A DNA stretch of 64,000 bases from Eledone cirrhosa (Eukaryota): assembly GCA_964016885.1 (NCBI GenBank), contig OZ024742.1, positions 358,732,001-358,796,000 on the forward strand, given 5' to 3'. Positions within the stretch are counted from its first letter, which is position 1. Each line of letters opens with the position of its first letter. The notes under the pieces are model-generated. The model worked only from the letters and a program-made list of their open reading frames with translations. It ran no database searches and was not told where the DNA came from. Shown piece after piece: positions 1 to 49,865 of the stretch. The position numbers and the translations under genes were made by a program.

Positions 1-2805
1 GACTTTTTAAGTTGTCCAGAAATGCTCATGGTGGGCTATTCAGACCACAAGTTAGTGACCTGCGTAGTCCACCTTGATAGAACGCATAGGCAGGGGCCCG
101 GTTACTGGAAGCTCAACTTGTCCTTACCGGCAAGTAGAGCTTACAGGGACCGGATTAGAACCTTAGTTAAGGAGCAGTTGACGGGCGCCATCGTCAACAA
201 CAGGTGGTGGGGCTCTCTAAAAAGAGAGATTAGAGTAGTTTCAATAGGAGTTAGTAAGGAGTTAGCCTCAGATAGAAATAGGAAGGAAAGGGAGTTGGTA
301 GTTAATGTTGAAGAGGCAATGAGAAGCGGCAACGTGGCCAGAGTGCAAGCGTCGAGAACGGTCTTGAACCAGTTCTTCGACGCGAAACACGAAGGCTGCG
401 TTGTCCGAAGCAAAATACGTGCTCTGGGAAACGAGGGGACCAAAGCTGTTAGCTGGGCCCGCGTGACAGAAGCGAAAAGTGGGATTAAATCCACTATCCG
501 GTCTTTGCGAGACCAGGATGGACGGCTGATCCTTGAACCTAAGCAAATGTGCGAGGCCTTTCAAAGGCACTTTGCCGAATTGTTCGGGAGGGGCGGGGAG
601 CCGGTTGGAGATGTGGATTTCGGTCCATACCTCGACGGCCTGCCGCGTCTTTCGGACAGGGAGGCGAGGTCCTGCGACGGGCCGATCTCAGCTGCTGAAA
701 TAGGGGACGTGCTGAGCCTATGCGGCAAACGCAAATCTCCAGGACTCGATGGTCTGCCCTACGAACTATATATTAATATGCCGGACTTGTTCCCCGATCT
801 CCTCGAGGCGGTCTACTGCAACTGGCAACAGAACGGGAGAATTCCCTGTTCTGTGACCAAGGGCGTAGTCTCGCTAGTGAGGAAGGACGAGAACAAGGGG
901 GATGACATTAGTAATTTTAGGCCCATAACTCTGCTAAATGCAGAGTTAAAGATTTTGGCGAAGGTGTTAGCGAAGAGGTTGGCGCTTGTCGTGGGGGGAC
1001 TGGTGGGAGATGCGCAGACATGCGCTATCCCGTCCAGGTCCATCCACGACAACCTCCACCTCATGCGATACATCATAGAGAGGGTTGGGAACGAACCCGG
1101 CTTTGGTGGGGCCCTGATAAATTTAGATCAGTCTAAAGCGTTCGATAGAGTGGACCATGGTTACCTGGATGCGGTGCTAGCGGCGGCTGGGTTCGGACCC
1201 GTTTTCAGGGGCTGGATCACTGCCATGCACAGCAGCCGCATCTGCTCTAGAGTCAAGGTGAACGGCTACCTTTCGGAGCCGTTCGAAATCACCCGCTCCA
1301 TCCGACAGGGGTGCCCTCTCTCCTCCCTTCTGTATGTGTTGACTCTCGAGCCATTACTGCGGAAGTTGGAGTTGTTGCAGGGCATCCCTTTGGAACCGGG
1401 ATTGCGCAAAGCGGTGTCGGCCTACGCCGATGACGTAACAGTAATGGTGTCGACCGCCTCGGAAATCGAGGCAATCGGCACCTTACTAGAGGAGTACGAA
1501 AGGTTGACAGGGGCTAAGCTGAACCGGGACAAGTCAGTCGCTTTGCAACTCGGCGAGTGGAGGGGCAAAGCGATGTCGTGCGACGGTATCGTCGGACGGT
1601 GGACGGAGGGCCCGGTGAAGTTGCTTGGGGTCTGGTTCGGACCGGACCTCCAGGTGGAGAAAAACTGGGGTGAGGTGACGAATAGGGTGTTTGCACTGAC
1701 CCAGAAGTGGGCCGAGTGCAAACTATCCCTAAAAGGTCGGGCGGAGGTGGCGAATGCTTACATAGCGTCCGTCATCTATTACCGCTTGACTGTCGTGCCT
1801 TGCCCGGGTGAGATCCTCGCCAAAATGGAGCGCGCCCTCTTTTATTTCCTTTGGAAGAAGAGGTCTCCTCTGGTGAGGAGATCCATCTGCTGTCAACACC
1901 CTTTGAAAGGAGGGCTGGGGATGCCGTGGCTAAAAATGCGTAAACACGCATTGAGGCTAAGGCACCTCCACGTATTCCTCACCGGTCAACCGGTGTGGGC
2001 CCCGTTTGTGAGGCGAGCCTTCCCGAGGCTCGTCTCGCTCACCGAGCTGCAGTCCTGGGTGAAGCAAAGACCGAGAAAACTGGGCGACTGGCACACCGAG
2101 TGTGCCCAGGCGCTCACGGCTCTCTGGCAGGCGGACCCGGCTATCGACGGAGACTCCACCTCGTCATTCTATAGAGGGCTGGTGGTTAGCGGGTGCGACG
2201 ACGCCCTCGGAGAAGCCCTAGGCATGGAGGAGGACGAACTGGCCAGTCTATTCGGTAGGACTTTCGGCCCGGGACCTATGGACAACTTCCAGAAGTCCTT
2301 GGCCTGGCAGTGCTACCGAGGGGCTCTGCCCGTTCGGGATAAGCTCTACAGACACGGGCGCCCGGGTAGGGACCCCTCGAAAAAGATCTGTCCCAGATGC
2401 GTGCGCGACGAGGAAACCGTCGCGCACGCATTGGTGCACTGCCCGGGCGTTGCCGATCTGTGGGGCTATGTCGAACGACTGTTGTCACGGGTGGGACCAA
2501 TTAGGTTGACCACCGAGTCCATTGTAACGATCAAGCCGCCTCCCCCCTTCAAAAATGAAGGAGAGGCGGTCTTCCTCTGTGTAATAGCCATGGTAAAAGA
2601 GGCTATATGGTGGACGCGTCTGAAAGGGCTGAGGTCGGACACCTTTCTCTCCGGCCAACAACTGGTCCTTTTCTTCCGATACCATTTCGGAAGAAGGATC
2701 AGGATGGAGAGAGAGGTGCTCCACTCCAGCCAGTTTTATGAAAGATGGGTGAAAGTTGCGAGAATGGCCCGTGTGAATGGGCCTTCTCTCTACCTCAGCC
2801 TGTAG
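1..2805 (+). CDS. ORF2 of copy 1, N-terminus cut by window edge (end of APE, RT, zinc finger)
   Basis: Open from base 1 (DFLSCPEM...); motifs SDH, WKLN, FRPITLLN, DQSKAFDRVDH, RQGCPLS, YADD, CPRC..ETVAHALVHC. Confidence 0.95.
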   Translation, partial: DFLSCPEMLMVGYSDHKLVTCVVHLDRTHRQGPGYWKLNLSLPASRAYRDRIRTLVKEQLTGAIVNNRWWGSLKREIRVVSIGVSKELASDRNRKERELVVNVEEAMRSGNVARVQASRTVLNQFFDAKHEGCVVRSKIRALGNEGTKAVSWARVTEAKSGIKSTIRSLRDQDGRLILEPKQMCEAFQRHFAELFGRGGEPVGDVDFGPYLDGLPRLSDREARSCDGPISAAEIGDVLSLCGKRKSPGLDGLPYELYINMPDLFPDLLEAVYCNWQQNGRIPCSVTKGVVSLVRKDENKGDDISNFRPITLLNAELKILAKVLAKRLALVVGGLVGDAQTCAIPSRSIHDNLHLMRYIIERVGNEPGFGGALINLDQSKAFDRVDHGYLDAVLAAAGFGPVFRGWITAMHSSRICSRVKVNGYLSEPFEITRSIRQGCPLSSLLYVLTLEPLLRKLELLQGIPLEPGLRKAVSAYADDVTVMVSTASEIEAIGTLLEEYERLTGAKLNRDKSVALQLGEWRGKAMSCDGIVGRWTEGPVKLLGVWFGPDLQVEKNWGEVTNRVFALTQKWAECKLSLKGRAEVANAYIASVIYYRLTVVPCPGEILAKMERALFYFLWKKRSPLVRRSICCQHPLKGGLGMPWLKMRKHALRLRHLHVFLTGQPVWAPFVRRAFPRLVSLTELQSWVKQRPRKLGDWHTECAQALTALWQADPAIDGDSTSSFYRGLVVSGCDDALGEALGMEEDELASLFGRTFGPGPMDNFQKSLAWQCYRGALPVRDKLYRHGRPGRDPSKKICPRCVRDEETVAHALVHCPGVADLWGYVERLLSRVGPIRLTTESIVTIKPPPPFKNEGEAVFLCVIAMVKEAIWWTRLKGLRSDTFLSGQQLVLFFRYHFGRRIRMEREVLHSSQFYERWVKVARMARVNGPSLYLSL

Positions 2806-3030
2806 GTGGAACAGAAAGAAGGGAGCACCCTCTCTTTGTGCTCCCGTGGAGAAGGGTCGCACACTTTTTTTCGGGGGTGTGTGTGACCCCAAAACGATCC
2901 CTCCCTATTGAGGACCTTCTTGTTATTATTTTGTTTGTTATATTTTTCTTACTCGATTTTTATGTAAACTCCCCCCACCCATGTACATGTCCCTTTCTTT
3001 TGTGCCCTAGTGGCAAATAAACAGAAATTT
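1..3030 (+). mobile_element. Tx1-like retrotransposon copy 1 (5' part outside window)
   Basis: ORF2 3' portion plus 3' UTR ending AATAAACAGAAATTT at 3030. Confidence 0.95.
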
Positions 3031-3221
3031 GTCTGTCTGTCTCTCTGAGGATAGTAGACGTGTGTCATATCGCTCTGTGATTTGGATTTTTACCTGCTAA
3101 TTTTGTGAGTGGATTTTTTTGAATTATTTTGTATAATTAACTGTAACCCCTAGTCTGGGACTCTAGACGTCGGGTAAATATATTTTCACCCCTTTTGGGG
3201 TGAAAAATAAATATTTGAGAA

Positions 3222-4976
3222 ATGTTTATCGATATCGTTGATAACGATATCGTCGAAAACGATATCGCCATATTGGAAGCGAACGCCACGCCGACCAAAA
3301 AAACAAGCGGGAAAGAGGGAACAACAGTTCAAACTGTTGAACAACCCCTCCTCTCCAATGAAAAAAAGAATTTCAATTCAAATGAAAAAATTAATTTTGA
3401 AGAAAAAAATAGCACCACAAATAAGGAAACCAACAACATTACAACAACAAACAAAGACAAAATTTCTTTTGCCCAAACACTTAGGAGAGCCACGGAATAC
3501 AAAGCCATTGACATCACGAACGCCAAGGAAAATTTGCTAGAGGCTAGAAAATACGTATCTTTTGGGGAGGATGGTTCTTTTACGATCAACTCCCCAGAAG
3601 AAGTGCGTGAACAGATTTACAAGAATACCGTAAGCTACAGAACCATAACCAACGAAACGAGAAAGCCAGCGCAATTGACCGAAAGTCAAATCGAGCTGGT
3701 TCTGAAAGAAATTAAAAATGACATACTCTTTATTCAAAGAGGAAAGCTGTATGCCAGCATTATGGTCCGAATGAAGGACGAAATGCTGGCTCAGAAATAT
3801 TCGGTGGCACCTATAGTGTCACCACATTACACCTTCTTCCCCACATATAAAGGAAGAAGAACACAAAGGATAAGAATGTGGAGCCCTACGCCAGAAATTA
3901 ACATCTGGTCCGTCCTAACAGGATTTACCGACCTAGATAAGGACATACTAATTTCAGCAGGGGAGTCCACCAGTGGACTGTTCGGGGGGAAAAGTCTGGA
4001 GGTTCTCTTACAGATGACACCTGAGAGAATCTCCGGAATACCCGACCGAGTGCTACTGGATGGGCGAACCTACATAAATATCACAGTGGAAGGCAGGAGA
4101 CCCTCATGTTACCACTGCGCTGGCAGAGGTCACCTGAGGACGGCCTGCCCTCTACTAACAACAAAAAAACCACTGCTACAAACACCACAACAACAACAAA
4201 AACAACCAGCACCACCATCACAAAAACAACAAAATACACTACCATCACCACCAGAACAACAAAAACCAACAACACCACCACCACCACCACCACAACAACA
4301 ACATCAACAACAGCTCAAGAAAACAACCCAAAACACGGTCCCACCCAGCCCCACCCCACAGAACACAAATACAAAAACAGTTCATACACAACCCGGAGAT
4401 ATACCCCTCCCCTCCAATACGGAAGAGGAGCTCATATCGTCGGAAGACGAGGGGGCTCCCTTCCAAAAAGTGAAAAGAAAAAAACGTACACACACCACAA
4501 CAACAAAAATAACCCCACCTGACAACACAACACAGACAATAAAACGCAAACTCACTCAACAACAACAAGCAAAAACAAACACAACAACACAAAAACTCTA
4601 CACATACATAAACAAAAACAATGAAAACCTAACTTTAAAAATAGAAACCAACCCTTCGATACAAACCGAAGGGCCGAATTTCGTAACGGCAATGGGGCTC
4701 CCTAACCTGAAAATGGTGAAAATCCCACTTGACATTTTTAAAACTTTAAAAGACATGTACCCTGAGGACGTGGGCCCACCCTGCACCAGGCCACTCAACC
4801 GCGTCCTCCTGAAAGGTTTTCCCCTCCCCTCCTCAAACACCCACACAACTCCAAAGATCCCAACCCCTCCACACACCAATACCCCCACACCACCACAAAC
4901 CACCACCCCACCCGTCAACCCCGCCACCAGCCCCATGGAAACTGAGCGACCCGAACCCCGGGACGCAGAGAGGTAA
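3222..4976 (+). CDS. ORF1 gag-like nucleic-acid-binding protein (584 aa), copy 2
   Basis: CCHC knuckle CYHCAGRGHLRTAC (4107-4148), basic NLS-like KVKRKKR, P/Q/T-rich linker; lies upstream of ORF2. Confidence 0.93.
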   Translation: MFIDIVDNDIVENDIAILEANATPTKKTSGKEGTTVQTVEQPLLSNEKKNFNSNEKINFEEKNSTTNKETNNITTTNKDKISFAQTLRRATEYKAIDITNAKENLLEARKYVSFGEDGSFTINSPEEVREQIYKNTVSYRTITNETRKPAQLTESQIELVLKEIKNDILFIQRGKLYASIMVRMKDEMLAQKYSVAPIVSPHYTFFPTYKGRRTQRIRMWSPTPEINIWSVLTGFTDLDKDILISAGESTSGLFGGKSLEVLLQMTPERISGIPDRVLLDGRTYINITVEGRRPSCYHCAGRGHLRTACPLLTTKKPLLQTPQQQQKQPAPPSQKQQNTLPSPPEQQKPTTPPPPPPQQQHQQQLKKTTQNTVPPSPTPQNTNTKTVHTQPGDIPLPSNTEEELISSEDEGAPFQKVKRKKRTHTTTTKITPPDNTTQTIKRKLTQQQQAKTNTTTQKLYTYINKNNENLTLKIETNPSIQTEGPNFVTAMGLPNLKMVKIPLDIFKTLKDMYPEDVGPPCTRPLNRVLLKGFPLPSSNTHTTPKIPTPPHTNTPTPPQTTTPPVNPATSPMETERPEPRDAER

Positions 4977-4999
4977 GTGCCTCTTTCTTTGCCACCAAC

Positions 5000-7900
5000 A
5001 TGGCTGTCTTAAGAGTGGGTTGTCTAAATGCGCGTGGCCTGGGCTCACCTTGGAAGCAAGCTAAACTTCTAAGTGACTTCAGGTCACAATGTGTAAATGT
5101 GATGGTTATTTGCGAGGCCCGGATCAGCAGCATGCGACAGCTAACCCCCACCTTTGATGACTTTGAGATGCACGCATCTCTCTGTCAGCCCGGAGGTGGG
5201 GGTGGGGTTGTCGTTCTGCTGCAAAAACATCTGGGTCTCGCTACACAGACGGTACACTTGGACCCGGAGGGTCGACTCGTGGTTCTGGACCTTGGCAATG
5301 GCGAAGGCGAAGCTTTTAGGCTTGTCGCCGTATACGCCCCTTTTGGGGCAATGCGGTCGGACTTCTTCCATCGTCTGGAGACTTTTCTAGGGACGTCCCG
5401 CTCCTTGCTTTTAGTGGGGGACTGGAATGGTATCCTAGATGCACGTTGGGACTATGTAGGGGCATGTCCCGATAGAGGGGGGTGTAACAGCCTTAAGGGG
5501 TTAATCGGTCGATTCGACCTGGCCGATAGATACCGACTAGATTTTCCGACTGTACCAACCTGGACCTGGTCAAATAACAGTGGTCAATCTAGATCGTACC
5601 TAGATAGGTTCTTAGTTAGAATTAAGGATAGGGACTTTTTAAGTTGTCCAGAAATGCTCATGGTGGGCTATTCAGACCACAAGTTAGTGACCTGCGTAGT
5701 CCACCTTGATAGAACGCATAGGCAGGGGCCCGGTTACTGGAAGCTCAACTTGTCCTTACCGGCAAGTAGAGCTTACAGGGACCGGATTAGAACCTTAGTT
5801 AAGGAGCAGTTGACGGGCGCCATCGTCAACAACAGGTGGTGGGGCTCTCTAAAAAGAGAGATTAGAGTAGTTTCAATAGGAGTTAGTAAGGAGTTAGCCT
5901 CAGATAGAAATAGGAAGGAAAGGGAGTTGGTAGTTAATGTTGAAGAGGCAATGAGAAGCGGCAACGTGGCCAGAGTGCAAGCGTCGAGAACGGTCTTGAA
6001 CCAGTTCTTCGACGCGAAACACGAAGGCTGCGTTGTCCGAAGCAAAATACGTGCTCTGGGAAACGAGGGGACCAAAGCTGTTAGCTGGGCCCGCGTGACA
6101 GAAGCGAAAAGTGGGATTAAATCCACTATCCGGTCTTTGCGAGACCAGGATGGACGGCTGATCCTTGAACCTAAGCAAATGTGCGAGGCCTTTCAAAGGC
6201 ACTTTGCCGAATTGTTCGGGAGGGGCGGGGAGCCGGTTGGAGATGTGGATTTCGGTCCATACCTCGACGGCCTGCCGCGTCTTTCGGACAGGGAGGCGAG
6301 GTCCTGCGACGGGCCGATCTCAGCTGCTGAAATAGGGGACGTGCTGAGCCTATGCGGCAAACGCAAATCTCCAGGACTCGATGGTCTGCCCTACGAACTA
6401 TATATTAATATGCCGGACTTGTTCCCCGATCTCCTCGAGGCGGTCTACTGCAACTGGCAACAGAACGGGAGAATTCCCTGTTCTGTGACCAAGGGCGTAG
6501 TCTCGCTAGTGAGGAAGGACGAGAACAAGGGGGATGACATTAGTAATTTTAGGCCCATAACTCTGCTAAATGCAGAGTTAAAGATTTTGGCGAAGGTGTT
6601 AGCGAAGAGGTTGGCGCTTGTCGTGGGGGGACTGGTGGGAGATGCGCAGACATGCGCTATCCCGTCCAGGTCCATCCACGACAACCTCCACCTCATGCGA
6701 TACATCATAGAGAGGGTTGGGAACGAACCCGGCTTTGGTGGGGCCCTGATAAATTTAGATCAGTCTAAAGCGTTCGATAGAGTGGACCATGGTTACCTGG
6801 ATGCGGTGCTAGCGGCGGCTGGGTTCGGACCCGTTTTCAGGGGCTGGATCACTGCCATGCACAGCAGCCGCATCTGCTCTAGAGTCAAGGTGAACGGCTA
6901 CCTTTCGGAGCCGTTCGAAATCACCCGCTCCATCCGACAGGGGTGCCCTCTCTCCTCCCTTCTGTATGTGTTGACTCTCGAGCCATTACTGCGGAAGTTG
7001 GAGTTGTTGCAGGGCATCCCTTTGGAACCGGGATTGCGCAAAGCGGTGTCGGCCTACGCCGATGACGTAACAGTAATGGTGTCGACCGCCTCGGAAATCG
7101 AGGCAATCGGCACCTTACTAGAGGAGTACGAAAGGTTGACAGGGGCTAAGCTGAACCGGGACAAGTCAGTCGCTTTGCAACTCGGCGAGTGGAGGGGCAA
7201 AGCGATGTCGTGCGACGGTATCGTCGGACGGTGGACGGAGGGCCCGGTGAAGTTGCTTGGGGTCTGGTTCGGACCGGACCTCCAGGTGGAGAAAAACTGG
7301 GGTGAGGTGACGAATAGGGTGTTTGCACTGACCCAGAAGTGGGCCGAGTGCAAACTATCCCTAAAAGGTCGGGCGGAGGTGGCGAACGCTTACATAGCGT
7401 CCGTCATCTATTACCGCTTGACTGTCGTGCCTTGCCCGAGTGAGATCCTCGCCAAAATGGAGCGCGCCCTCTTTTATTTCCTTTGGAAGAAGAGGTCTCC
7501 TCTGGTGAGGAGATCCATCTGCTGTCAACACCCTTTGAAAGGAGGGCTGGGGATGCCGTGGCTAAAAATGCGTAAACACGCATTGAGGCTAAGGCACCTC
7601 CACGTATTCCTCACCGGTCAACCGGTGTGGGCCCCGTTTGTGAGGCGAGCCTTCCCGAGGCTCGTCTCGCTCACCGAGCTGCAGTCCTGGGTGAAGCAAA
7701 GACCGAGAAAACTGGGCGACTGGCACACCGAGTGTGCCCAGGCGCTCACGGCTCTCTGGCAGGCGGACCCGGCTATCGACGGAGACTCCACCTCGTCATT
7801 CTATAGAGGGCTGGTGGTTAGCGGGTGCGACGACGCCCTCGGAGAAGCCCTAGGCATGGAGGAGGACGAACTGGCCAGTCTATTCGGTAGGACTTTCGGC

Positions 7901-8437: not shown

Positions 8438-8663
8438 GTGGAACAGAAAGAAGGGAGCACCCTCTCTTTGTGCTCCCGTGGAGAAGGGTCGCACACTTTT
8501 TTTTCGGGGGTGTGTGTGACCCCAAAACGATCCCTCCCTATTGAGGACCTTCTTGTTACTATTTTGTTTGTTATATTTTTCTTACTCGATTTTTATGTAA
8601 ACTCCCCCCACCCATGTACATGTCCCTTTCTTTTGTGCCCTAGTGGCAAATAAACAGAAATTT

Positions 8664-9811: not shown

Positions 9812-9986
9812 GAGGATAGTAGACGTGTGTCATATCGCTCTGTGATTTGGATTTTTACCTGCTAATTTTGTGAGTGGATTTTTTTGAATTATTTTGTATA
9901 ATTAACTGTAACCCCTAGTCTGGGACTCTAGACGTCGGGTAAATATATTTTCACCCCTTTTGGGGTGAAAAATAAATATTTGAGAA

Positions 9987-11741: not shown

Positions 11742-11764
11742 GTGCCTCTTTCTTTGCCACCAAC

Positions 11765-17365: not shown

Positions 17366-17388
17366 GTGCCTCTTTCTTTGCCACCAAC

Positions 17389-34183: not shown

Positions 34184-34206
34184 GTGCCTCTTTCTTTGCC
34201 ACCAAC

Positions 34207-39819: not shown

Positions 39820-39842
39820 GTGCCTCTTTCTTTGCCACCAAC

Positions 39843-42800
39843 ATGGCTGTCTTAAGAGTGGGTTGTCTAAATGCGCGTGGCCTGGGCTCACCTTGGAAGC
39901 AAGCTAAACTTCTAAGTGACTTCAGGTCACAATGTGTAAATGTGATGGTTATTTGCGAGGCCCGGATCAGCAGCATGCGACAGCTAACCCCCACCTTTGA
40001 TGACTTTGAGATGCACGCATCTCTCTGTCAGCCCGGAGGTGGGGGTGGGGTTGTCGTTCTGCTGCAAAAACATCTGGGTCTCGCTACACAGACGGTACAC
40101 TTGGACCCGGAGGGTCGACTCGTGGTTCTGGACCTTGGCAATGGCGAAGGCGAAGCTTTTAGGCTTGTCGCCGTATACGCCCCTTTTGGGGCAATGCGGT
40201 CGGACTTCTTCCATCGTCTGGAGACTTTTCTAGGGACGTCCCGCTCCTTGCTTTTAGTGGGGGACTGGAATGGTATCCTAGATGCACGTTGGGACTATGT
40301 AGGGGCATGTCCCGATAGAGGGGGGTGTAACAGCCTTAAGGGGTTAATCGGTCGATTCGACCTGGCCGATAGATACCGACTAGATTTTCCGACTGTACCA
40401 ACCTGGACCTGGTCAAATAACAGTGGTCAATCTAGATCGTACCTAGATAGGTTCTTAGTTAGAATTAAGGATAGGGACTTTTTAAGTTGTCCAGAAATGC
40501 TCATGGTGGGCTATTCAGACCACAAGTTAGTGACCTGCGTAGTCCACCTTGATAGAACGCATAGGCAGGGGCCCGGTTACTGGAAGCTCAACTTGTCCTT
40601 ACCGGCAAGTAGAGCTTACAGGGACCGGATTAGAACCTTAGTTAAGGAGCAGTTGACGGGCGCCATCGTCAACAACAGGTGGTGGGGCTCTCTAAAAAGA
40701 GAGATTAGAGTAGTTTCAATAGGAGTTAGTAAGGAGTTAGCCTCAGATAGAAATAGGAAGGAAAGGGAGTTGGTAGTTAATGTTGAAGAGGCAATGAGAA
40801 GCGGCAACGTGGCCAGAGTGCAAGCGTCGAGAACGGTCTTGAACCAGTTCTTCGACGCGAAACACGAAGGCTGCGTTGTCCGAAGCAAAATACGTGCTCT
40901 GGGAAACGAGGGGACCAAAGCTGTTAGCTGGGCCCGCGTGACAGAAGCGAAAAGTGGGATTAAATCCACTATCCGGTCTTTGCGAGACCAGGATGGACGG
41001 CTGATCCTTGAACCTAAGCAAATGTGCGAGGCCTTTCAAAGGCACTTTGCCCAATTGTTCGGGAGGGGCGGGGAGCCGGTTGGAGATGTGGATTTCGGTC
41101 CATACCTCGACGGCCTGCCGCGTCTTTCGGACAGGGAGGCGAGGTCCTGCGACGGGCCGATCTCAGCTGCTGAAATAGGGGACGTGCTGAGCCTATGCGG
41201 CAAACGCAAATCTCCAGGACTCGATGGTCTGCCCTACGAACTATATATTAATATGCCGGACTTGTTCCCCGATCTCCTCGAGGCGGTCTACTGCAACTGG
41301 CAACAGAACGGGAGAATTCCCTGTTCTGTGACCAAGGGCGTAGTCTCGCTAGTGAGGAAGGACGAGAACAAGGGGGATGACATTAGTAATTTTAGGCCCA
41401 TAACTCTGCTAAATGCAGAGTTAAAGATTTTGGCGAAGGTGTTAGCGAAGAGGTTGGCGCTTGTCGTGGGGGGCCTGGTGGGAGATGCGCAGACATGCGC
41501 TATCCCGTCCAGGTCCATCCACGACAACCTCCACCTCATGCGATACATCATAGAGAGGGTTGGGAACGAACCCGGCTTTGGTGGGGCCCTGATAAATTTA
41601 GATCAGTCTAAAGCGTTCGATAGGGTGGACCATGGTTACCTGGATGCGGTGCTAGCGGCGGCTGGGTTCGGACCCGTTTTCAGGGGCTGGATCACTGCCA
41701 TGCACAGCAGCCGCATCTGCTCTAGAGTCAAGGTGAACGGCTACCTTTCGGAGCCGTTCGAAATCACCCGCTCCATCCGACAGGGGTGCCCTCTCTCCTC
41801 CCTTCTGTATGTGTTGACTCTCGAGCCATTACTGCGGAAGTTGGAGTTGTTGCAGGGCATCCCTTTGGAACCGGGATTGCGCAAAGCGGTGTCGGCCTAC
41901 GCCGATGACGTAACAGTAATGGTGTCGACCGCCTCGGAAATCGAGGCGATCGGCACCTTACTAGAGGAGTACGAAAGGTTGACAGGGGCTAAGCTGAACC
42001 GGGACAAGTCAATCGCTTTGCAACTCGGCGAGTGGAGGGGCAAAGCGATGTCGTGCGACGGTATCGTCGGACGGTGGACGGAGGGCCCGGTGAAGCTGCT
42101 TGGGGTCTGGTTCGGACCGGACCTCCAGGTGGAGAAAAACTGGGGTGAGGTGACGAATAGGGTGTTTGCACTGACCCAGAAGTGGGCCGAGTGCAAACTA
42201 TCCCTAAAAGGTCGGGCGGAGGTGGCGAACGCTTACATAGCGTCCGTCATCTATTACCGCTTGACTGTCGTGCCTTGCCCGGGTGAGATCCTCGCCAAAA
42301 TGGAGCGCGCCCTCTTTTATTTCCTTTGGAAGAAGAGGTCTCCTCTAGTGAGGAGATCCATCTGCTGTCAACACCCTTTGAAAGGAGGGCTGGGGATGCC
42401 GTGGCTAAAAATGCGTAAACACGCATTGAGGCTAAGGCACCTCCACGTATTCCTCACCGGTCAACCGGTGTGGGCCCCGTTTGTGAGGCGAGCCTTCCCG
42501 AGGCTCGTCTCGCTCACCGAGCTGCAGTCCTGGGTGAAGCAAAGACCGAGAAAACTGGGCGACTGGCACACCGAGTGTGCCCAGGCGCTCACGGCACTCT
42601 GGCAGGCGGACCCGGCTATCGACGGAGACTCCACCTCGTCATTCTATAGAGGGCTGGTGGTTAGCGGGTGCGACGACGCCCTCGGAGAAGCCCTAGGCAT
42701 GGAGGAGGACGAACTGGCCAGTCTATTCGGTAGGACTTTCGGCCCGGGACCTATGGACAACTTCCAGAAGTCCTTGGCCTGGCAGTGCTACCGAGGGGCT

Positions 42801-43202
42801 CTGCCTGTTCGGGATAAGCTCTACAGACACGGGCGCCCGGGTAGGGACCCCTCGAAAAAGATCTGTCCCAGATGCGTGCGCGACGAGGAAACCGTCGCGC
42901 ACGCATTGGTGCACTGCCCGGGCGTTGCCGATCTGTGGGGCTATGTCGAACGACTGCTGTCACGGGTGGGACCAATTAGGTTGACCACCGAAAAAGAGGC
43001 TATATGGTGGACGCGTCTGAAAGGGCTGAGGTCGGACACCTTTCTCTCCGGCCAACAACTGGTCCTTTTCTTCCGATACCATTTCGGAAGAAGGATCAGG
43101 ATGGAGAGAGAGGTGCTCCACTCCAGCCAGTTTTATGAAAGGTGGGTGAAAGTTGCGAGAATGGCCCGTGTGAATGGGCCTTCTCTCTACCTCAGCCTGT
43201 AG
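39843..43202 (+). CDS. ORF2 (1119 aa), copy 8, with 26-aa deletion
   Basis: Same deletion as copy 6. Confidence 0.9.
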   Translation: MAVLRVGCLNARGLGSPWKQAKLLSDFRSQCVNVMVICEARISSMRQLTPTFDDFEMHASLCQPGGGGGVVVLLQKHLGLATQTVHLDPEGRLVVLDLGNGEGEAFRLVAVYAPFGAMRSDFFHRLETFLGTSRSLLLVGDWNGILDARWDYVGACPDRGGCNSLKGLIGRFDLADRYRLDFPTVPTWTWSNNSGQSRSYLDRFLVRIKDRDFLSCPEMLMVGYSDHKLVTCVVHLDRTHRQGPGYWKLNLSLPASRAYRDRIRTLVKEQLTGAIVNNRWWGSLKREIRVVSIGVSKELASDRNRKERELVVNVEEAMRSGNVARVQASRTVLNQFFDAKHEGCVVRSKIRALGNEGTKAVSWARVTEAKSGIKSTIRSLRDQDGRLILEPKQMCEAFQRHFAQLFGRGGEPVGDVDFGPYLDGLPRLSDREARSCDGPISAAEIGDVLSLCGKRKSPGLDGLPYELYINMPDLFPDLLEAVYCNWQQNGRIPCSVTKGVVSLVRKDENKGDDISNFRPITLLNAELKILAKVLAKRLALVVGGLVGDAQTCAIPSRSIHDNLHLMRYIIERVGNEPGFGGALINLDQSKAFDRVDHGYLDAVLAAAGFGPVFRGWITAMHSSRICSRVKVNGYLSEPFEITRSIRQGCPLSSLLYVLTLEPLLRKLELLQGIPLEPGLRKAVSAYADDVTVMVSTASEIEAIGTLLEEYERLTGAKLNRDKSIALQLGEWRGKAMSCDGIVGRWTEGPVKLLGVWFGPDLQVEKNWGEVTNRVFALTQKWAECKLSLKGRAEVANAYIASVIYYRLTVVPCPGEILAKMERALFYFLWKKRSPLVRRSICCQHPLKGGLGMPWLKMRKHALRLRHLHVFLTGQPVWAPFVRRAFPRLVSLTELQSWVKQRPRKLGDWHTECAQALTALWQADPAIDGDSTSSFYRGLVVSGCDDALGEALGMEEDELASLFGRTFGPGPMDNFQKSLAWQCYRGALPVRDKLYRHGRPGRDPSKKICPRCVRDEETVAHALVHCPGVADLWGYVERLLSRVGPIRLTTEKEAIWWTRLKGLRSDTFLSGQQLVLFFRYHFGRRIRMEREVLHSSQFYERWVKVARMARVNGPSLYLSL

Positions 43203-43427
43203 GTGGAACAGAAAGAAGGGAGCACCCTCTCTTTGTGCTCCCGTGGAGAAGGGTCGCACACTTTTTTTCGGGGGTGTGTGTGACCCCAAAACGATCCCTC
43301 CCTATTGAGGACCTTCTTGTTACTATTTTGTTTGTTATATTTTTCTTACTCGATTTTTATGTAAACTCCCCCCACCCATGTACATGTCCCTTTCTTTTGT
43401 GCCCTAGTGGCAAATAAACAGAAATTT

Positions 43428-43475
43428 ATCTGTCTGTCTGCCTGTTAGTATGTCTACCTGTCTGTCTGTCTGTCT
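43428..43475. repeat. 48-bp spacer containing about one unit of the 36-bp minisatellite
   Basis: ATCTGTCTGTCTGCCTGTTAGTATGTCTACCTGTCTGTCTGTCTGTCT. Confidence 0.9.
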
Positions 43476-43650
43476 GAGGATAGTAGACGTGTGTCATATC
43501 GCTCTGTGATTTGGATTTTTACCTGCTAATTTTGTGAGTGGATTTTTTTGAATTATTTTGTATAATTAACTCTAACCCCTAGTCTGGGACTCTAGACGTC
43601 GGGTAAATATATTTTCACCCCTTTTGGGGTGAAAAATAAATATTTGAGAA

Positions 43651-45405
43651 ATGTTTATCGATATCGTTGATAACGATATCGTCGAAAACGATATCGCCAT
43701 ATTGGAAGCGAACGCCACGCCGACCAAAAAAACAAGCGGGAAAGAGGGAACAACAGTTCAAACTGTTGAACAACCCCTCCTCTCCAATGAAAAAAAGAAT
43801 TTCAATTCAAATGAAAAAATTAATTTTCAAGAAAAAAATAACACCACAAATAAGGAAACCAACAACATTACAACAACAAACAAAGACAAAATTTCTTTTG
43901 CCCAAACACTCAAGAGAGCCACGGAGTACAAAGCCATTGACATCACGAACGCCAAGGAAAATTTGCTAGAGGCTAGAAAATACGTATCTTTTGGGGAGGA
44001 TGGTTCTTTTACGATCAACTCCCCAGAAGAAGTGCGTCAACAGATTTACAAGAATACCGTAAGCTTCAGAACCATAACCAACGAAACGAGAAAGCCAGCG
44101 CAATTGACCGAAAGTCAAATCGAGCTGGTTCTGAAAGAAATTAAAAATGACATACTCTTTATTCAAAGAGGAAAGCTGTATGCCAGCATTATGGTCCGAA
44201 TGAAGGACGAAATGCTGGCTCAGAAATATTCGGTGGCACCTATAGTGTCACCACAATACACCTTCTTCCCCACATATAAAGGAAGAAGAACACAAAGGAT
44301 AAGAATGTGGAGCCCTACGCCAGAAATTAACATCTGGTCCGTCCTAACAGGATTTACCGACCTAGATAAGGACATACTAATTTCAGCAGGGGAGTCCACC
44401 AGTGGACTGTTCGGGGGGAAAAGTCTGGAGGTTCTCTTACAGATGACACCTGAGAGAATCTCCGGAATACCCGACCGAGTGCTACTGGATGGGCGAACCT
44501 ACATAAATATCACAGTGGAAGGCAGGAGACCCTCATGTTACCACTGCGCTGGCAGAGGTCACCTGAGGACGGCCTGCCCTCTACTAACAACTAAAAAACC
44601 ACTGCTACAAACACCACAACAACAACAAAAACAACCAGCACCACCATCACAAAAACAACAAAATACACTACCATCTCCACCAGAACAACAAAAACCAACA
44701 ACACCACCACCACCACCACAACAACAACAACATCAACAACAGCTCAAGAAAACAACCCAAAACACGGTCCCACCCAGCCCCACCCCACAGAACACAAATA
44801 CAAAAACAGTTCATACACAACCCGGAGATATACCCCTCCCCTCCAATACGGAAGAGGAGCTCATATCGTCGGAAGACGAGGGGGCTCCCTTCCAAAAAGT
44901 GAAAAGAAAAAAACGTACACACACCACAACAACAAAAATAACCCCACCTGACAACACAACACAGACAATAAAACGCAAACTCACTCAACAACAACAAGCA
45001 AAAACAAACACAACAACACAAAAACTCTACACATACATAAACAAAAACAATGAAAACCTAACTTTAAAAATAGAAACCAACCCTTCGATACAAACCGAAG
45101 GGCCGAATTTCGTAACGGCAATGGGGCTCCCTAACCTGAAAATGGTGAAAATCCCACTTGACATTTTTAAAACTTTAAAAGACATGTACCCTGAGGACGT
45201 GGGCCCACCCTGCACCAGGCCACTCAACCGCGTCCTCCTGAAAGGTTTTCCCCTCCCCTCCTCAAACACCCACACAACTCCAAAGATCCCAACCCCTCCA
45301 CACACCAATACCCCCACACCACCACAAACCACCACCCCACCCATCAACCCCGCCACCAGCCCCATGGAAACTGAGCGACCCGAACCCCGGGACGCAGAGA
45401 GGTAA
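43651..45405 (+). CDS. ORF1 (584 aa), copy 9
   Basis: CCHC knuckle intact. Confidence 0.93.
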   Translation: MFIDIVDNDIVENDIAILEANATPTKKTSGKEGTTVQTVEQPLLSNEKKNFNSNEKINFQEKNNTTNKETNNITTTNKDKISFAQTLKRATEYKAIDITNAKENLLEARKYVSFGEDGSFTINSPEEVRQQIYKNTVSFRTITNETRKPAQLTESQIELVLKEIKNDILFIQRGKLYASIMVRMKDEMLAQKYSVAPIVSPQYTFFPTYKGRRTQRIRMWSPTPEINIWSVLTGFTDLDKDILISAGESTSGLFGGKSLEVLLQMTPERISGIPDRVLLDGRTYINITVEGRRPSCYHCAGRGHLRTACPLLTTKKPLLQTPQQQQKQPAPPSQKQQNTLPSPPEQQKPTTPPPPPQQQQHQQQLKKTTQNTVPPSPTPQNTNTKTVHTQPGDIPLPSNTEEELISSEDEGAPFQKVKRKKRTHTTTTKITPPDNTTQTIKRKLTQQQQAKTNTTTQKLYTYINKNNENLTLKIETNPSIQTEGPNFVTAMGLPNLKMVKIPLDIFKTLKDMYPEDVGPPCTRPLNRVLLKGFPLPSSNTHTTPKIPTPPHTNTPTPPQTTTPPINPATSPMETERPEPRDAER

Positions 45406-45428
45406 GTGCCTCTTTCTTTGCCACCAAC

Positions 45429-48400
45429 ATGGCTGTCTTAAGAGTGGGTTGTCTAAATGCGCGTGGCCTGGGCTCACCTTGGAAGCAAGCTAAACTTCTA
45501 AGTGACCTCAGGTCACAATGTGTAAATGTGATGGTTATTTGCGAGGCCCGGATCAGCAGCATGCGACAGCTAACCCCCACCTTTGATGACTTTGAGATGC
45601 ACGCATCTCTCTGTCAGCCCGGAGGTGGGGGTGGGGTTGTCGTTCTGCTGCAAAAACATCTGGGTCTCGCTACACAGACGGTACACTTGGACCCGGAGGG
45701 TCGACTCGTGGTTCTGGACCTTGGCAATGGCGAAGGCGAAGCTTTTAGGCTTGTCGCCGTATACGCCCCTTTTGGGGCAATGCGGTCGGACTTCTTCCAT
45801 CGTCTGGAGACTTTTCTAGGGACGTCCCGCTCCTTGCTTTTAGTGGGGGACTGGAATGGTATCCTAGATGCACGTTGGGACTATGTAGGGGCATGTCCCG
45901 ATAGAGGGGGGTGTAACAGCCTTAAGGGGTTAATCGGCCGATTCGACCTGGCCGATAGATACCGACTAGATTTTCCGACTGTACCAACCTGGACCTGGTC
46001 AAATAACAGTGGTCAATCTAGATCGTACCTAGATAGGTTCTTAGTTAGAATTAAGGATAGGGACTTTTTAAGTTGTCCAGAAATGCTCATGGTGGGCTAT
46101 TCAGACCACAAGTTAGTGACCTGCGTAGTCCACCTTGATAGAACGCATAGGCAGGGGCCCGGTTACTGGAAGCTCAACTTGTCCTTACCGGCAAGTAGAG
46201 CTTACAGGGACCGGATTAGAACCTTAGTTAAGGAGCAGTTGACGGGCGCCATCGTCAACAACAGGTGGTGGGGCTCTCTAAAAAGAGAGATTAGAGTAGT
46301 TTCAATAGGAGTTAGTAAGGAGTTAGCCTCAGATAGAAATAGGAAGGAAAGGGAGTTGGTAGTTAATGTTGAAGAGGCAATGAGAAGCGGCAACGTGGCC
46401 AGAGTGCAAGCGTCGAGAACGGTCTTGAACCAGTTCTTCGACGCGAAACACGAAGGCTGCGTTGTCCGAAGCAAAATACGTGCTCTGGGAAACGAGGGGA
46501 CCAAAGCTGTTAGCTGGGCCCGCGTGACAGAAGCGAAAAGTGGGATTAAATCCACTATCCGGTCTTTGCGAGACCAGGATGGACGGCTGATCCTTGAACC
46601 TAAGCAAATGTGCGAGGCCTTTCAAAGGCACTTTGCCCAATTGTTCGGGAGGGGCGGGGAGCCGGTTGGAGATGTGGATTTCGGTCCATACCTCGACGGC
46701 CTGCCGCGTCTTTCGGACAGGGAGGCGAGGTCCTGCGACGGACCGATCTCAGCTGCTGAAATAGGGGACGTGCTGAGCCTATGCGGCAAACGCAAATCTC
46801 CAGGACTCGATGGTCTGCCCTACGAACTATATATTAATATGCCGGACTTGTTCCCCGATCTCCTCGAGGCGGTCTACTGCAACTGGCAACAGAACGGGAG
46901 AATTCCCTGTTCTGTGACCAAGGGCGTAGTCTCGCTAGTGAGGAAGGACGAGAACAAGGGGGATGACATTAGTAATTTTAGGCCCATAACTCTGCTAAAT
47001 GCAGAGTTAAAGATTTTGGCGAAGGTGTTAGCGAAGAGGTTGGCGCTTGTCGTGGGGGGCCTGGTGGGAGATGCGCAGACATGCGCTATCCCGTCCAGGT
47101 CCATCCACGACAACCTCCACCTCATGCGATACATCATAGAGAGGGTTGGGAACGAACCCGGCTTTGGTGGGGCCCTGATAAATTTAGATCAGTCTAAAGC
47201 GTTCGATAGGGTGGACCATGGTTACCTGGATGCGGTGCTAGCGGCGGCTGGGTTCGGACCCGTTTTCAGGGGCTGGATCACTGCCATGCACAGCAGCCGC
47301 ATCTGCTCTAGAATCAAGGTGAACGGCTACCTTTCGGAGCCGTTCGAAATCACCCGCTCCATCCGACAGGGGTGCCCTCTCTCCTCCCTTCTGTATGTAT
47401 TGACTCTCGAGCCATTACTGCGGAAGTTGGAGTTGTTGCAGGGCATCCCTTTGGAACCGGGATTGCGCAAAGCGGTGTCGGCCTACGCCGATGACGTAAC
47501 AGTAATGGTGTCGACCGCCTCGGAAATCGAGGCAATCGGCACCTTACTAGAGGAGTACGAAAGGTTGACAGGGGCTAAGCTGAACCGGGACAAGTCAGTC
47601 GCTTTGCAACTCGGCGAGTGGAGGGGCAAAGCGATGTCGTGCGACGGTATCGTCGGACGGTGGACGGAGGGCCCGGTGAAGTTGCTTGGGGTCTGGTTCG
47701 GACCGGACCTCCAGGTGGAGAAAAACTGGGGTGAGGTGACGAATAGGGTGTTTGCACTGACCCAGAAGTGGGCCGACTTCAAACTATCCCTAAAAGGTCG
47801 GGCGGAGGTGGCGAACGCTTACATAGCGTCCGTCATCTATTACCGCTTGACTGTCGTGCCTTGCCCGGGTGAGATCCTCGCCAAAATGGAACGCGCCCTC
47901 TTTTATTTCCTTTGGAAGAAGAGGTCTCCTCTAGTGAGGAGATCCATCTGCTGTCAACACCCTTTGAAAGGAGGGCTGGGGATGCCGTGGCTAAAAATGC
48001 GTAAACACGCATTGAGGCTAAGGCACCTCCACGTATTCCTCACCGGTCAACCGGTGTGGGCCCCGTTTGTGAGGCGAGCCTTCCCGAGGCTCGTCTCGCT
48101 CACCGAGCTGCAGTCCTGGGTGAAGCAAAGACCGAGAAAACTGGGCGACTGGCACACCGAGTGTGCCCAGGCGCTCACGGCTCTCTGGCAGGCGGACCCG
48201 GCTATCGACGGAGACTCCACCTCGTCATTCTATAGAGGGCTGGTGGTTAGCGGGTGCGACGACGCCCTCGGAGAAGCCCTAGGCATGGAGGAGGACGAAC
48301 TGGCCAGTCTATTCGGTAGGACTTTCGGCCCGGGACCTATGGACAACTTCCAGAAGTCCTTGGCCTGGCAGTGCTACCGAGGGGCTCTGCCCGTTCGGGA

Positions 48401-48866
48401 TAAGCTCTACAGACACGGGCGCCCGGGTAGGGACCCCTCGAAAAAGATCTGTCCCAGATGCGTGCGCGACGAGGAAACCGTCGCGCACGCATTGGTGCAC
48501 TGCCCGGGCGTTGCCGATCTGTGGGGCTATGTCGAACGACTGCTGTCACGGGTGGGACCAATTAGGTTGACCACCGAGTCCATTGTAACGATCAAGCCGC
48601 CTCCCCCCTTCAAAAATGAAGGAGAGGCGGTCTTCCTCTGTGTAATAGCCATGGTAAAAGAGGCTATATGGTGGACGCGTCTGAAAGGGCTGAGGTCGGA
48701 CACCTTTCTCTCCGGCCAACAACTGGTCCTTTTCTTCCGATACCATTTCGGAAGAAGGATCAGGTTGGAGAGAGAGGTGCTCCACTCCAGCCAGTTTTAT
48801 GAAAGGTGGGTGAAAGTTGCGAGAATGGCCCGTGTGAATGGGCCTTCTCTCTACCTCAGCCTGTAG
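45429..48866 (+). CDS. ORF2 (1145 aa), copy 9
   Basis: APE, RT and zinc-finger motifs intact. Confidence 0.97.
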   Translation: MAVLRVGCLNARGLGSPWKQAKLLSDLRSQCVNVMVICEARISSMRQLTPTFDDFEMHASLCQPGGGGGVVVLLQKHLGLATQTVHLDPEGRLVVLDLGNGEGEAFRLVAVYAPFGAMRSDFFHRLETFLGTSRSLLLVGDWNGILDARWDYVGACPDRGGCNSLKGLIGRFDLADRYRLDFPTVPTWTWSNNSGQSRSYLDRFLVRIKDRDFLSCPEMLMVGYSDHKLVTCVVHLDRTHRQGPGYWKLNLSLPASRAYRDRIRTLVKEQLTGAIVNNRWWGSLKREIRVVSIGVSKELASDRNRKERELVVNVEEAMRSGNVARVQASRTVLNQFFDAKHEGCVVRSKIRALGNEGTKAVSWARVTEAKSGIKSTIRSLRDQDGRLILEPKQMCEAFQRHFAQLFGRGGEPVGDVDFGPYLDGLPRLSDREARSCDGPISAAEIGDVLSLCGKRKSPGLDGLPYELYINMPDLFPDLLEAVYCNWQQNGRIPCSVTKGVVSLVRKDENKGDDISNFRPITLLNAELKILAKVLAKRLALVVGGLVGDAQTCAIPSRSIHDNLHLMRYIIERVGNEPGFGGALINLDQSKAFDRVDHGYLDAVLAAAGFGPVFRGWITAMHSSRICSRIKVNGYLSEPFEITRSIRQGCPLSSLLYVLTLEPLLRKLELLQGIPLEPGLRKAVSAYADDVTVMVSTASEIEAIGTLLEEYERLTGAKLNRDKSVALQLGEWRGKAMSCDGIVGRWTEGPVKLLGVWFGPDLQVEKNWGEVTNRVFALTQKWADFKLSLKGRAEVANAYIASVIYYRLTVVPCPGEILAKMERALFYFLWKKRSPLVRRSICCQHPLKGGLGMPWLKMRKHALRLRHLHVFLTGQPVWAPFVRRAFPRLVSLTELQSWVKQRPRKLGDWHTECAQALTALWQADPAIDGDSTSSFYRGLVVSGCDDALGEALGMEEDELASLFGRTFGPGPMDNFQKSLAWQCYRGALPVRDKLYRHGRPGRDPSKKICPRCVRDEETVAHALVHCPGVADLWGYVERLLSRVGPIRLTTESIVTIKPPPPFKNEGEAVFLCVIAMVKEAIWWTRLKGLRSDTFLSGQQLVLFFRYHFGRRIRLEREVLHSSQFYERWVKVARMARVNGPSLYLSL

Positions 48867-49091
48867 GTGGAACAGAAAGAAGGGAGCACCCTCTCTTTGT
48901 GCTCCCGTGGAGAAGGGTCGCACACTTTTTTTCGGGGGTGTGTGTGACCCCAAAACGATCCCTCCCTATTGAGGACCTTCTTGTTATTATTTTGTTTGTT
49001 ATATTTTTCTTACTCGATTTTTATGTAAACTCCCCCCACCCATGTACATGTCCCTTTCTTTTGTGCCCTAGTGGCAAATAAACAGAAATTT

Positions 49092-49491
49092 GTCTGTCTA
49101 CCTGTCAGTATGTCTACCTGTCTATCTGTCTGTCTGCCTGTCAGTATGTCTACCTGTCTATCTGTCTGTCTACCTGTCAGTATGTCTACCTGTCTATCTG
49201 TCTGTCTGCCTGTCAGTATGTCTACCTGTCTATCTGTCTGTCTGCCTGTCAGTGTGTCTACCTGTCTATCTGTCTGTCTGCCTGTCAGTATGTCTACCTG
49301 TCTATCTGTCTGTCTGCCTGTCAGTATGTCTACCTGTCTATCTGTCTGTCTGCCTGTCAGTATGTCTACCTGTCTATCTGTCTGTCTGCCTGTCAGTATG
49401 TCTACCTGTCTATCTGTCTGTCTGCCTGTCAGTGTGTCTACCTGTCTATCTGTCTGTCTGCCTGTCAGTATGTCTACCTGTCTATCTGTCT
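49092..49491. repeat. 36-bp minisatellite (~11 units), same unit as 8664-9811
   Basis: Direct inspection. Confidence 0.97.
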
Positions 49492-49865
49492 GAGCAACTG
49501 ATTCGTTTTTTCAAATATCATTTTGGAAGAAGAATCAGGGTGAAGAGAGAGGTGCTGTACCCAGTAAATTTTATAAAAGGTGGGTGTATGTGGCAAAGAT
49601 GGCTCGAGTGGTTGGGCCTTCTCTCTATATAAGCCTGTAGGTTGAGGAAACAGAGGAAGGGAGTACTCATTCCTGGTGCTCCTGGAGATGAGGGCTGTAC
49701 ATTTTTTCGGGGTGTGTACAACCCCTGTGTAACACCTCCCCCCTATTGGGGATATCAATTGTTATTTGTTATTTTATTAATAGTTTTATTTTTATATACC
49801 TGTATGTAAACTCCCCATTTGTATTTGTCCCCTCCTTTGTGCCCTTGTGGCTAATAAAGAAATTT
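49492..49865 (+). mobile_element. Diverged 3'-terminal fragment of an older relative of the array element
   Basis: Translates EQLIRFFKYHFGRRIRVKREVLY, then a frameshift, then FYKRWVYVAKMARVVGPSLYISL*. This aligns to the ORF2 C-terminus. The homologous 3' UTR ends AATAAAGAAATTT and is followed by ATCTCTCTG. Confidence 0.93.

Follow-up and report, generated by a model that had tools for sequence, protein, structure and literature searches.

How does a stack of nine nearly identical retrotransposons come to occupy one position in a chromosome? The question is raised by a 64-kb window (the whole stretch of DNA that was analysed) of contig OZ024742.1, hereafter C3. In the assembly, nine full-length 5.6-kb LINE copies lie head-to-tail and on the same strand within one GTCT repeat tract. 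The first-pass annotation had recognised nine near-identical copies separated by TCTG-type DNA, and pairwise identities of 99.4–99.7% and all eight spacers agree with this. It had also pictured a single special locus growing into an array, but 15 other multi-copy loci were found. This stack of a young L1-group LINE in (GTCT)n probably grew by several separate upstream insertions, together with local recombination in its middle copies.

Structure of the array

The array spans positions 358,729,418–358,781,091 of C3 (51.7 kb, or about 53 kb with its flanking tracts) and is the longest multi-copy locus of the family. The initial estimate of at least 49 kb was right in describing a large array, which is now bounded. 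It starts 2,583 bp to the left of the window, and no further family copy occurs in the 97 kb examined beyond copy 1, ruling out a leftward continuation. On the right it runs through 49091, the end of copy 9, and not to 49865 as first annotated. Beyond it lie the right-hand portion of the TCTG-type minisatellite (11 repeats of 36 bp, 49092–49492), representing the original target tract, and a forward-strand fragment at 49495–49865. The fragment was considered as a tenth copy and rejected, being only 73% identical and the 3′ fragment of an older relative. A block of 52-bp satellite, at least 74 kb long, terminates about 20 kb to the left of the array.

All nine copies are on the forward strand. 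Copy 1, the 3′ part of which lies within the window (1–3030), is full length, with intact ORFs of 583 and 1145 aa and a 16-bp target duplication. Copy 2 (3047–8663) is also full length and carries ORF1 at 3222–4976 (584 aa) and ORF2 at 5000–8437 (1145 aa), the latter with an AP endonuclease, a reverse transcriptase and a zinc-binding C-terminus (domain scan made on copy 3). Copies 3 (9812–15427), 4 (15436–21051) and 9 (43476–49091) are likewise full length with both ORFs intact, copy 9 representing a separate lineage. In the remaining copies ORF2 is shortened: an early stop common to copies 5 (21060–26675; stop at 26130) and 7 (32254–37869; stop at 37324) leaves 1039 aa, and an in-frame 78-bp deletion common to copies 6 (26696–32233) and 8 (37890–43427) leaves 1119 aa. 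Copy 8 has one substitution relative to copy 6, while copy 7 is similar to copy 6 in its 5′ part and to copy 5 in its 3′ part. Initial claims that ORF1 is intact in all eight complete copies of the window (584 aa each) and ORF2 full length (1145 aa) in copies 2, 3, 4 and 9 proved correct, and copy 1 is intact as well.

From copy 1 to copy 9 the spacers measure 16, 1148, 8, 8, 20, 20, 20 and 48 bp, every one of the TCTG type. The 1,148-bp spacer (8664–9811) consists mainly of 30 repeats of a 36-bp minisatellite, plus a degenerate 5′ part, and matches the tract left of copy 1 with 0 mismatches in 1148. Copy 4 is bordered by an identical 8-bp spacer on either side, and the 48-bp spacer (43428–43475) contains one minisatellite unit and GTCT repeats.

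Copies 5–8 or the repeated 1,148-bp tract could represent an expansion introduced during assembly, or two haplotypes placed in tandem. Consistent with such an error are the single-site difference between copies 6 and 8, three identical spacers and an exact repeat of the tract. However, the window and the 100 kb on its left contain no N gaps, the copies differ at 1–36 sites with alleles that recur at other loci, the sequence of copy 7 combines copies 6 and 5 instead of duplicating either, and the same architecture is present at 15 other loci; an artefact is considered very unlikely. Four sequencing runs compared with one copy detected the family in two studies, with no tail-to-head joint among the matches listed, and are uninformative on copy number.

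Proteins and classification

A Pfam search of copy 3 ORF2 identified Exo_endo_phos (2.6e-7) and RVT_1 (1.3e-26), as well as zf-RVT at 1.2e-5, slightly short of the curated cut-off. No terminal repeats (LTRs) were seen in self-comparison. ORF2 matches human L1 ORF2p over residues 7–858 (E 2.5e-51) and R2 proteins at 4e-18, in a comparison whose matches comprised L1 and R2 alone, and the family is assigned by sequence to the L1 group of non-LTR retrotransposons. Within it, membership of the Tx1 clade is likely. The nearest named protein matches are from Argonauta hians (68%), followed by turtle and teleost proteins (33–42%), none labelled by clade, and no named Tx1 protein (Tx1L, Keno, Kibi, Koshi) was returned among them. 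Tx1 clade ORF1 proteins carry RNA-binding domains and a CCHC knuckle. In the present ORF1, a zf-CCHC at 295–310 is weak (E 0.067), Atlas look-alikes include zf-CCHC (0.90–0.92) and ZCCHC3-type domains (0.89), the predicted fold has low confidence (pLDDT 36), and a homologue search found no homologue.

Target specificity and youth of the family

Genome-wide, RTCT follows 191 of the 199 tails with an exact 3′ end, and TGTCT stands at the end of the 5′ flank in 68 of the 73 full-length copies, the flanks being (GTCT)n and its variants. A LINE is regarded as target-specific if one sequence type makes up more than 20% of its flanks (PMC4494074), and the family is target-specific by this definition. 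Both ORFs are intact in 41 of the 73 copies, and the description of the family as young and site-specific is upheld by these counts. ORF2 variants found at three or more loci comprise 23 synonymous and 13 non-synonymous changes, against 137 and 212 among private variants, a synonymous excess expected of replicating lineages. No spliced retrocopy without ORF2 was found at 1 mismatch. Clear target duplications of solo copies measure 11–21 bp (most cases are unresolvable within repeats), ruling out uniformly long duplications.

Stacking across the genome

The 73 full-length copies fall at 42 loci. A count of arrayed and solo copies, proposed in the first-pass annotation and carried out genome-wide, placed 47 of them in 16 multi-copy loci, the other 26 being solo. 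The 15 other stacks are shorter, have the same architecture and are scattered over many chromosomes. The earlier idea that insertions regenerate their own target, and that an array grows in this way, holds for repeated insertion at the same tract, but regeneration alone is insufficient to explain stacking because thousands of target tracts (about 4,400) exist in the genome. In the other arrays, long spacers begin precisely where the element ends, and most of them have 0–7 bases in common with the 3′ flank of the next copy, as expected of new priming events.

Separate insertions and local exchange

The likeness of copies 1 and 9 to unlinked copies extends over their whole length. Copy 1 shows 6–8 differences from copies on contigs C19 and C27 and 19–36 from its array mates, and copy 9 shows 14–17 from unlinked copies and 19–33 from its array mates. 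That both are nearest to copies on other chromosomes indicates that separate insertions contributed. At least three source lineages are present (copy 1, copy 9 and copies 2–8); on the tree, the window label requires three changes, and a single clade is rejected (p-AU 0.0008). The 3′ junctions of the array are of six kinds. Copies 6 and 8, with one differing site and a common deletion, and copies 5 and 7, with a common stop, carry lesions seen at no other locus among the 73 copies. Local DNA exchange thus contributed too, and copies 5–8 are judged to have been multiplied or homogenised by it.

Copies 2 and 4–8 form one clade, and a rare variant located 100 bp short of the 3′ end is present in all of copies 2–8 and in 5 of 64 copies elsewhere, so the junction count may overstate the number of insertions and understate the share of local copying. 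Growth might even have consisted almost entirely of tandem duplication of a single insertion at the DNA level, with TCTG tracts as the sites of unequal exchange or template switching, followed by gene conversion from distant copies that gave members an unrelated appearance. Besides the clade and the shared local lesions, this account draws on mosaicism across the whole family (among the 26 solo copies, the four-gamete test fails for 755 of 2016 site pairs), and this mosaicism makes inference from trees less secure, including that from the AU test. It is nevertheless unlikely, given the end-to-end likeness of copies 1 and 9 to unlinked copies, and junctions that lie at the exact 3′ terminus with differing flanks and terminal T counts, where exchange between tracts would scatter the breakpoints.

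Under the preferred account of separate insertions plus local exchange, new copies would insert just upstream of earlier residents, in the remaining target tract, copy 1 being likely the newest addition, and local recombination would then multiply and mix the middle copies. A GTCT leader carried on the element RNA may provide a 5′ tag. Evidence for such a tag, drawn from sequence comparison, is thin: the 6 of 42 loci that carry one 5′ tag variant are more closely related to each other than chance would give (p about 0.003). At locus L122 an 18-bp unique duplication precedes a piece resembling the element tail, which is followed by GTCT repeats and then the head, a pattern present in 1 of 106 copies. 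When shared flank length was compared with distance in a Mantel test, however, rho was +0.24, opposite in sign to that expected under tag inheritance.

Homology-guided insertion

As a tentative alternative, cDNA primed upstream of a resident copy may be completed by pairing with the 5′ part of the resident, occupied sites being preferred. Such pairing would duplicate the DNA from the nick to the resident and give the new copy a 5′ portion derived from its neighbour. In line with this, the 1,148-bp tract is duplicated without mismatch, and copies 2 and 3 show no difference over their first 1,867 bp, followed by 18 differing sites. In other arrays, spacers of 56, 57, 72, 110, 121 and 132 bp match the upstream flank with 0–1 mismatch, and 8 of 16 leftmost pairs have zero difference in the first 500 bp. 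A family tail is found within 700 bp upstream of 28 of 73 young copies and 1 of 29 older copies, although selection of the older set omitted about five old heads having upstream neighbours, and older arrays may have collapsed. The 28 copies with an upstream neighbour and the exact flank duplications of up to 1,148 bp are a hint of homology-guided insertion.

Against it, neighbours are identical over the first 500 bp in 15 of 31 cases (142 of 2559 unlinked pairs) and over the last 500 bp in 7 of 31 (63 of 2559), a similar enrichment that rules out 5′-specific neighbour identity. Copy 4 has the opposite pattern, a foreign 5′ end, its first 450 bp being of another haplotype, and several pairs with duplicated spacers (56 bp on C2, 110 bp on C3) differ from their first bases onward. 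The absence of truncated members, considered as a sign of completion from the neighbour, is uninformative because the family is mostly full length regardless (33 of 54 tails without an exact young head nonetheless extend to a 5′ head). It is doubtful that homology steers insertion to occupied sites in preference to the thousands of empty targets, with array junctions supplying the GTCT leader of daughters and arrays forming a routine replication stage and a source of mosaic haplotypes. If true, homology-guided completion would be relevant to the second half of LINE integration, which is poorly understood, and would explain long target duplications.

Position and host role

The first-pass annotation had offered a master locus, a small-RNA source or structural chromatin as roles for which the array might be retained. 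Five of the nine copies are fully intact and the large satellite block lies nearby, but the intact share equals the family average (41 of 73), and the nearest copies elsewhere have 14–18 differences from copies 2–9, hence no close daughter. A master locus is not supported, as 0 of 64 full-length copies elsewhere are within 13 differences of copies 2–9. Only copy 1 has close kin elsewhere, and the direction of descent cannot be told. A check of telomere distance placed the array 20.1 Mb inside the end of C3, with no TTAGGG doublet in the 164 kb examined, so that it is not telomeric, and similar shorter stacks occur over many chromosomes. Retention for a host role is most improbable; most likely, the array is a transient by-product of selfish elements and has no host function.

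Comparison with other LINEs

Members of HeT-A/TART/TAHRE arrays are often 5′-truncated, unlike the full-length members of the present array. Those elements also form same-strand, head-to-tail LINE arrays via successive additions (10.1101/158386), but the present array lies 20 Mb inside its contig and its family needs a sequence target. R1 of Drosophila 28S rDNA is a site-specific, APE-type LINE with head-to-tail arrays and target DNA between members (PMC2718515; 10.1101/158386). In these accounts, each new R1 copy enters the piece of target that remains beside a resident's 5′ end, and unequal exchange expands the array later; melanogaster-type R1 RNA includes 6–27 nt of upstream target, and junctions consist of the duplication plus extra target. 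R1 belongs to another LINE group and targets rDNA, whereas the present family uses a dispersed microsatellite. Spacers family-wide range from 4 to 1,341 bp (fixed at 14 or 33 bp in R1, as described), and nine copies compare with 91–273 junctions reported for a large R1 array. Target DNA between members, differing origins and later local duplication, the features of transposon-derived tandems formed by double insertion and then unequal exchange, are all present, and by analogy the array can be said to match both this model and R1-type tandems.

Templated or chimeric insertions of human L1, in which cDNA leaves its RNA, pairs with nearby homologous DNA and duplicates genomic sequence, resemble the step postulated in homology-guided insertion (10.1101/2024.08.27.596794). 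As described there, their templates are typically below 250 bp and lie no more than 15 bp from the site, and the events are rare and somatic, whereas the duplications here are up to 1,148 bp long and occur repeatedly next to resident copies.

Identity with Kibi or Koshi was rejected, the flanks being (GTCT)n rather than (TC)n or (TTC)n. Kibi on (TC)n, Koshi on (TTC)n and crocodilian Tx1 families on (TTCC)n/(TTTC)n are likewise two-ORF LINEs of the L1 group with an AP endonuclease, inserting into pyrimidine-rich microsatellites (PMC4494074; PMC3812793). The available descriptions (PMC4494074; PMC3812793) do not give (GTCT)n among the targets and do not include long arrays, and the present host is an octopod. 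A literature search, mostly of open-access papers, turned up neither a Tx1 family that targets TCTG/GTCT nor an account of this array, and the family may already be catalogued, for example in Repbase or Dfam. Stacking is a known LINE habit, and (GTCT)n is likely a new microsatellite target, which, with a likely new host group, would be added to the sequence-specific L1/Tx1-type LINEs. The natural series from solo copies through dimers to nine copies, with readable junctions, is unusually complete as material for tests of the origin and growth of LINE tandems, and a mostly full-length, apparently active family with a short, defined target would be convenient for assays of endonuclease specificity. 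In another octopod, Octopus vulgaris, 13 recently active L1-Tx1 families have been reported (PMC13282606).

Structure of the array

Nine LINE copies, all on the same (+) strand, were delineated by self-comparison, ORF listing and junction extraction, confirming the head-to-tail arrangement with intervening TCTG-type DNA reported in the first-pass annotation. Copy 1 is intact, begins 2,583 bp before the window's left edge and is the first of the array, with no further copies within 97 kb to its left. The others are at 3047-8663 (copy 2), 9812-15427 (copy 3), 15436-21051 (copy 4), 21060-26675 (copy 5), 26696-32233 (copy 6), 32254-37869 (copy 7), 37890-43427 (copy 8) and 43476-49091 (copy 9), and the spacers are, from left to right, 16, 1148, 8, 8, 20, 20, 20 and 48 bp. 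As annotated, ORF1 is open in all eight of these complete copies (584 aa), and ORF2 is full-length (1145 aa) in copies 2, 3, 4 and 9. In copies 5 and 7 a common stop shortens ORF2 to 1039 aa; in copies 6 and 8 the same in-frame 78-bp deletion leaves 1119 aa. In total the array measures 51.7 kb, or about 53 kb including flanking tracts; the original estimate of at least 49 kb (1..49865) holds for size but not for the right end, where 49495-49865 is the tail of an older relative (73% identical). Sequencing runs of two studies contain the family, and the number of copies in the array itself is taken from the assembly. That the array is a real site-specific LINE stack is well supported.

The element and its relatives

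ORF2 carries domains for AP endonuclease, RT and zinc binding, and among solved structures matches human L1 ORF2p (E 2.5e-51) more closely than R2 (4e-18). ORF1 shows a weak match to a CCHC knuckle, and a homologue search with it detected none. The element ends in AGAAATTT and lacks a poly(A) tail. Among named proteins, one of Argonauta hians (68%) is nearest to the RT; unnamed proteins come next at about 50%, then turtle and teleost proteins at 33-42%, which makes an octopod host likely. The LINE likely belongs to the Tx1 clade. Splice-like signals bracket ORF2, with AG|GTAAGT across the ORF1 stop (11736-11741 in copy 3) and a pyrimidine tract plus TAG|GT at the ORF2 stop (15179-15204). Other copies are alike, and the acceptor-like motif is also present in older relatives. 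A search for spliced retrocopies lacking ORF2, with 1 mismatch allowed, found none.

Genome-wide there are 66 exact heads (5′ ends), 199 exact tails (3′ ends) and 52 older-type heads. Retrieval of all 66 head loci, and some located by tail, yielded 42 loci with 73 full-length young copies between them. The target repeat RTCT directly follows 191 of the 199 tails, TGTCT closes the 5′ flank in 68 of the 73 young copies, and both ORFs are intact in 41/73, which bears out the proposal of a young site-specific family. Target duplications, where clear, are 11-21 bp, and ORF2 variants common to several loci are mostly synonymous. The proposed count of arrayed and solo copies placed 47 of the 73 in 16 multi-copy loci, the next longest arrays having four copies; solo copies were those with no neighbour within ~2.2 kb, and one such locus (on contig C26) proved to have at least two more copies upstream. 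With 15 multi-copy loci besides this one, a single special locus is not supported. Among the first 100 tails listed (contigs C1-C4), 54 without a nearby exact head were inspected; 33 extend to a 5′ head, mostly of older subfamilies, and the family is therefore unusually rich in full-length copies.

Among subfamilies (loci L082-L134), heads vary stepwise, with GTT-, TT-, CAG- or GAG- ahead of GATAGTAGAC, and tail and target stay constant despite these changes. Five copies in this set appear to have differing 5′ regions, with joins close to element positions 1022 and 1553. An older-copy array (L079-L080) includes an internally deleted unit of ~810 bp retaining only both ends, a possible non-autonomous derivative. 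Sequencing runs of seven other organisms (X5-X11) contain 5-27% of the element's words, which is only a lead to close relatives in other species.

Site-specific LINE stacks are a known phenomenon. Described microsatellite-targeting Tx1 families occur on (TC)n, (TTC)n, (TTCC)n and (TTTC)n (PMC4494074, PMC3812793), whereas the target here is (GTCT)n. The family had not been recognised as described, and no account of a (GTCT)n-targeting LINE was found in the literature searched, a search that lay outside Repbase and Dfam.

Proposed target regeneration and the excess of neighbouring copies

That the element regenerates its own target, as first suggested, is partly shown: TCT-type repeats precede every head, and short target duplications recreate an insertion site. 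Carriers of one 5′ tag variant, found in 6 of the 42 locus representatives, are more closely related to one another than expected at random (p 0.003-0.004 over the whole element and its 5′ third; 0.04 over two further segments). Two unlinked copies have in common a 33-bp flank carrying two rare variants, and their first 1,900 bp differ at only 2 sites. A Mantel test of shared flank length against distance gave a sign opposite to inheritance of this tag. In one older copy at a single-GTCT site (L122:1280-1310), an 18-bp unique duplication is followed by an element-tail-like piece, GTCT repeats and the head, the trace expected of a leader that had been copied from an array junction; this was seen in 1 of 106 copies examined. 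A young copy begins 82 bp downstream of that older copy's tail.

H(GTCT)5 has 16,374 matches in the genome; the first 100 listed represent 27 tracts, which extrapolates to ~4,400. By chance, <2% of new copies would lie beside one of ~75 young residents, yet a family tail lies no more than 700 bp upstream of 28/73 young copies. Even without some seven apparent local duplicates, we infer an excess of more than tenfold. Given so many tracts, regeneration alone is therefore no explanation. The corresponding count is 1/29 for older full-length copies (a set that leaves out about five old heads with neighbours), and may have been lowered by collapse of older arrays.

Homology-guided completion on a resident copy would explain both this excess and the duplicated flanks. 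In tumours, L1 cDNA is reported to be completed on nearby DNA (10.1101/2024.08.27.596794). Long spacers are often exact duplicates of the upstream flank (56-132 bp in other arrays); the 1,148-bp spacer is one, with 0 mismatches, and beyond it copies 2 and 3 are identical over 1,867 bp. However, identity between neighbours is raised about ninefold at both ends (no differences in the first or last 500 bp in 15/31 and 7/31, against 142/2559 and 63/2559), and copy 4 has the reverse pattern, a foreign 5′ end. For these reasons such completion stays a rival, and a rather improbable one.

Origin of the array

Copy 1 differs from copies on contigs C19 and C27 at 6-8 positions and from its fellow array copies at 19-36; for copy 9 the figures are 14-17 against unlinked copies and 19-33 within the array. 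On a tree of all 73 copies, the window label requires three changes, and a single clade for the window copies is rejected (p-AU 0.0008), by a test that assumes no recombination in a family that is mosaic even among solo copies (755/2016 site pairs fail the four-gamete test in 26 of them). One site distinguishes copies 6 and 8, and six sites copies 5 and 7; each pair has variants in common that are absent from every other locus, and three array spacers are identical to each other. Copy 7 is a hybrid (5′ part 6-like, 3′ part 5-like), and a rare 3′ variant is common to copies 2-8. The array holds six types of junction, and its copies come from at least three source lineages. Separate lineages at copies 1 and 9, together with local exchange in copies 5-8 and the variant of copies 2-8, therefore make a mixed origin the best reading. 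Separate insertions from at least three source lineages would have come first, and the core copies would later have been subject to unequal exchange or conversion; the general model of TE tandems likewise has double insertion, then unequal exchange (10.1101/158386). In 11 of the 16 array loci the copy farthest upstream appears to be younger than the final one, a weak sign that arrays grow on their 5′ side.

Genomic surroundings

The array and the contig end are 20.1 Mb apart, and no telomeric repeat doublet occurs in the 164 kb around it, so the suggested check of telomere distance argues against proximity. A role as master locus, also suggested, is disfavoured, as copies 2-9 have no close daughters among the 64 full-length copies elsewhere. 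To the left of the window, from 97.9 to 23.7 kb away and about 20 kb from the array, is a block of 52-bp satellite (~1,425 units; L003-L010). It measures at least 74 kb, a lower bound at its left end, and its orientation switches 43.5 kb left of the window. No convincing gene was found between 49.9 and 64 kb of the window, where the right flank is AT-rich with small tandem repeats (41-bp at 54162-54445, 36/56-bp at 62196-62555). Between 17 and 7 kb left of the window (L001-L002) are open-frame remnants with RT-like, gag-like and Penelope-like pieces, which, from translations judged by eye, look like other transposons.
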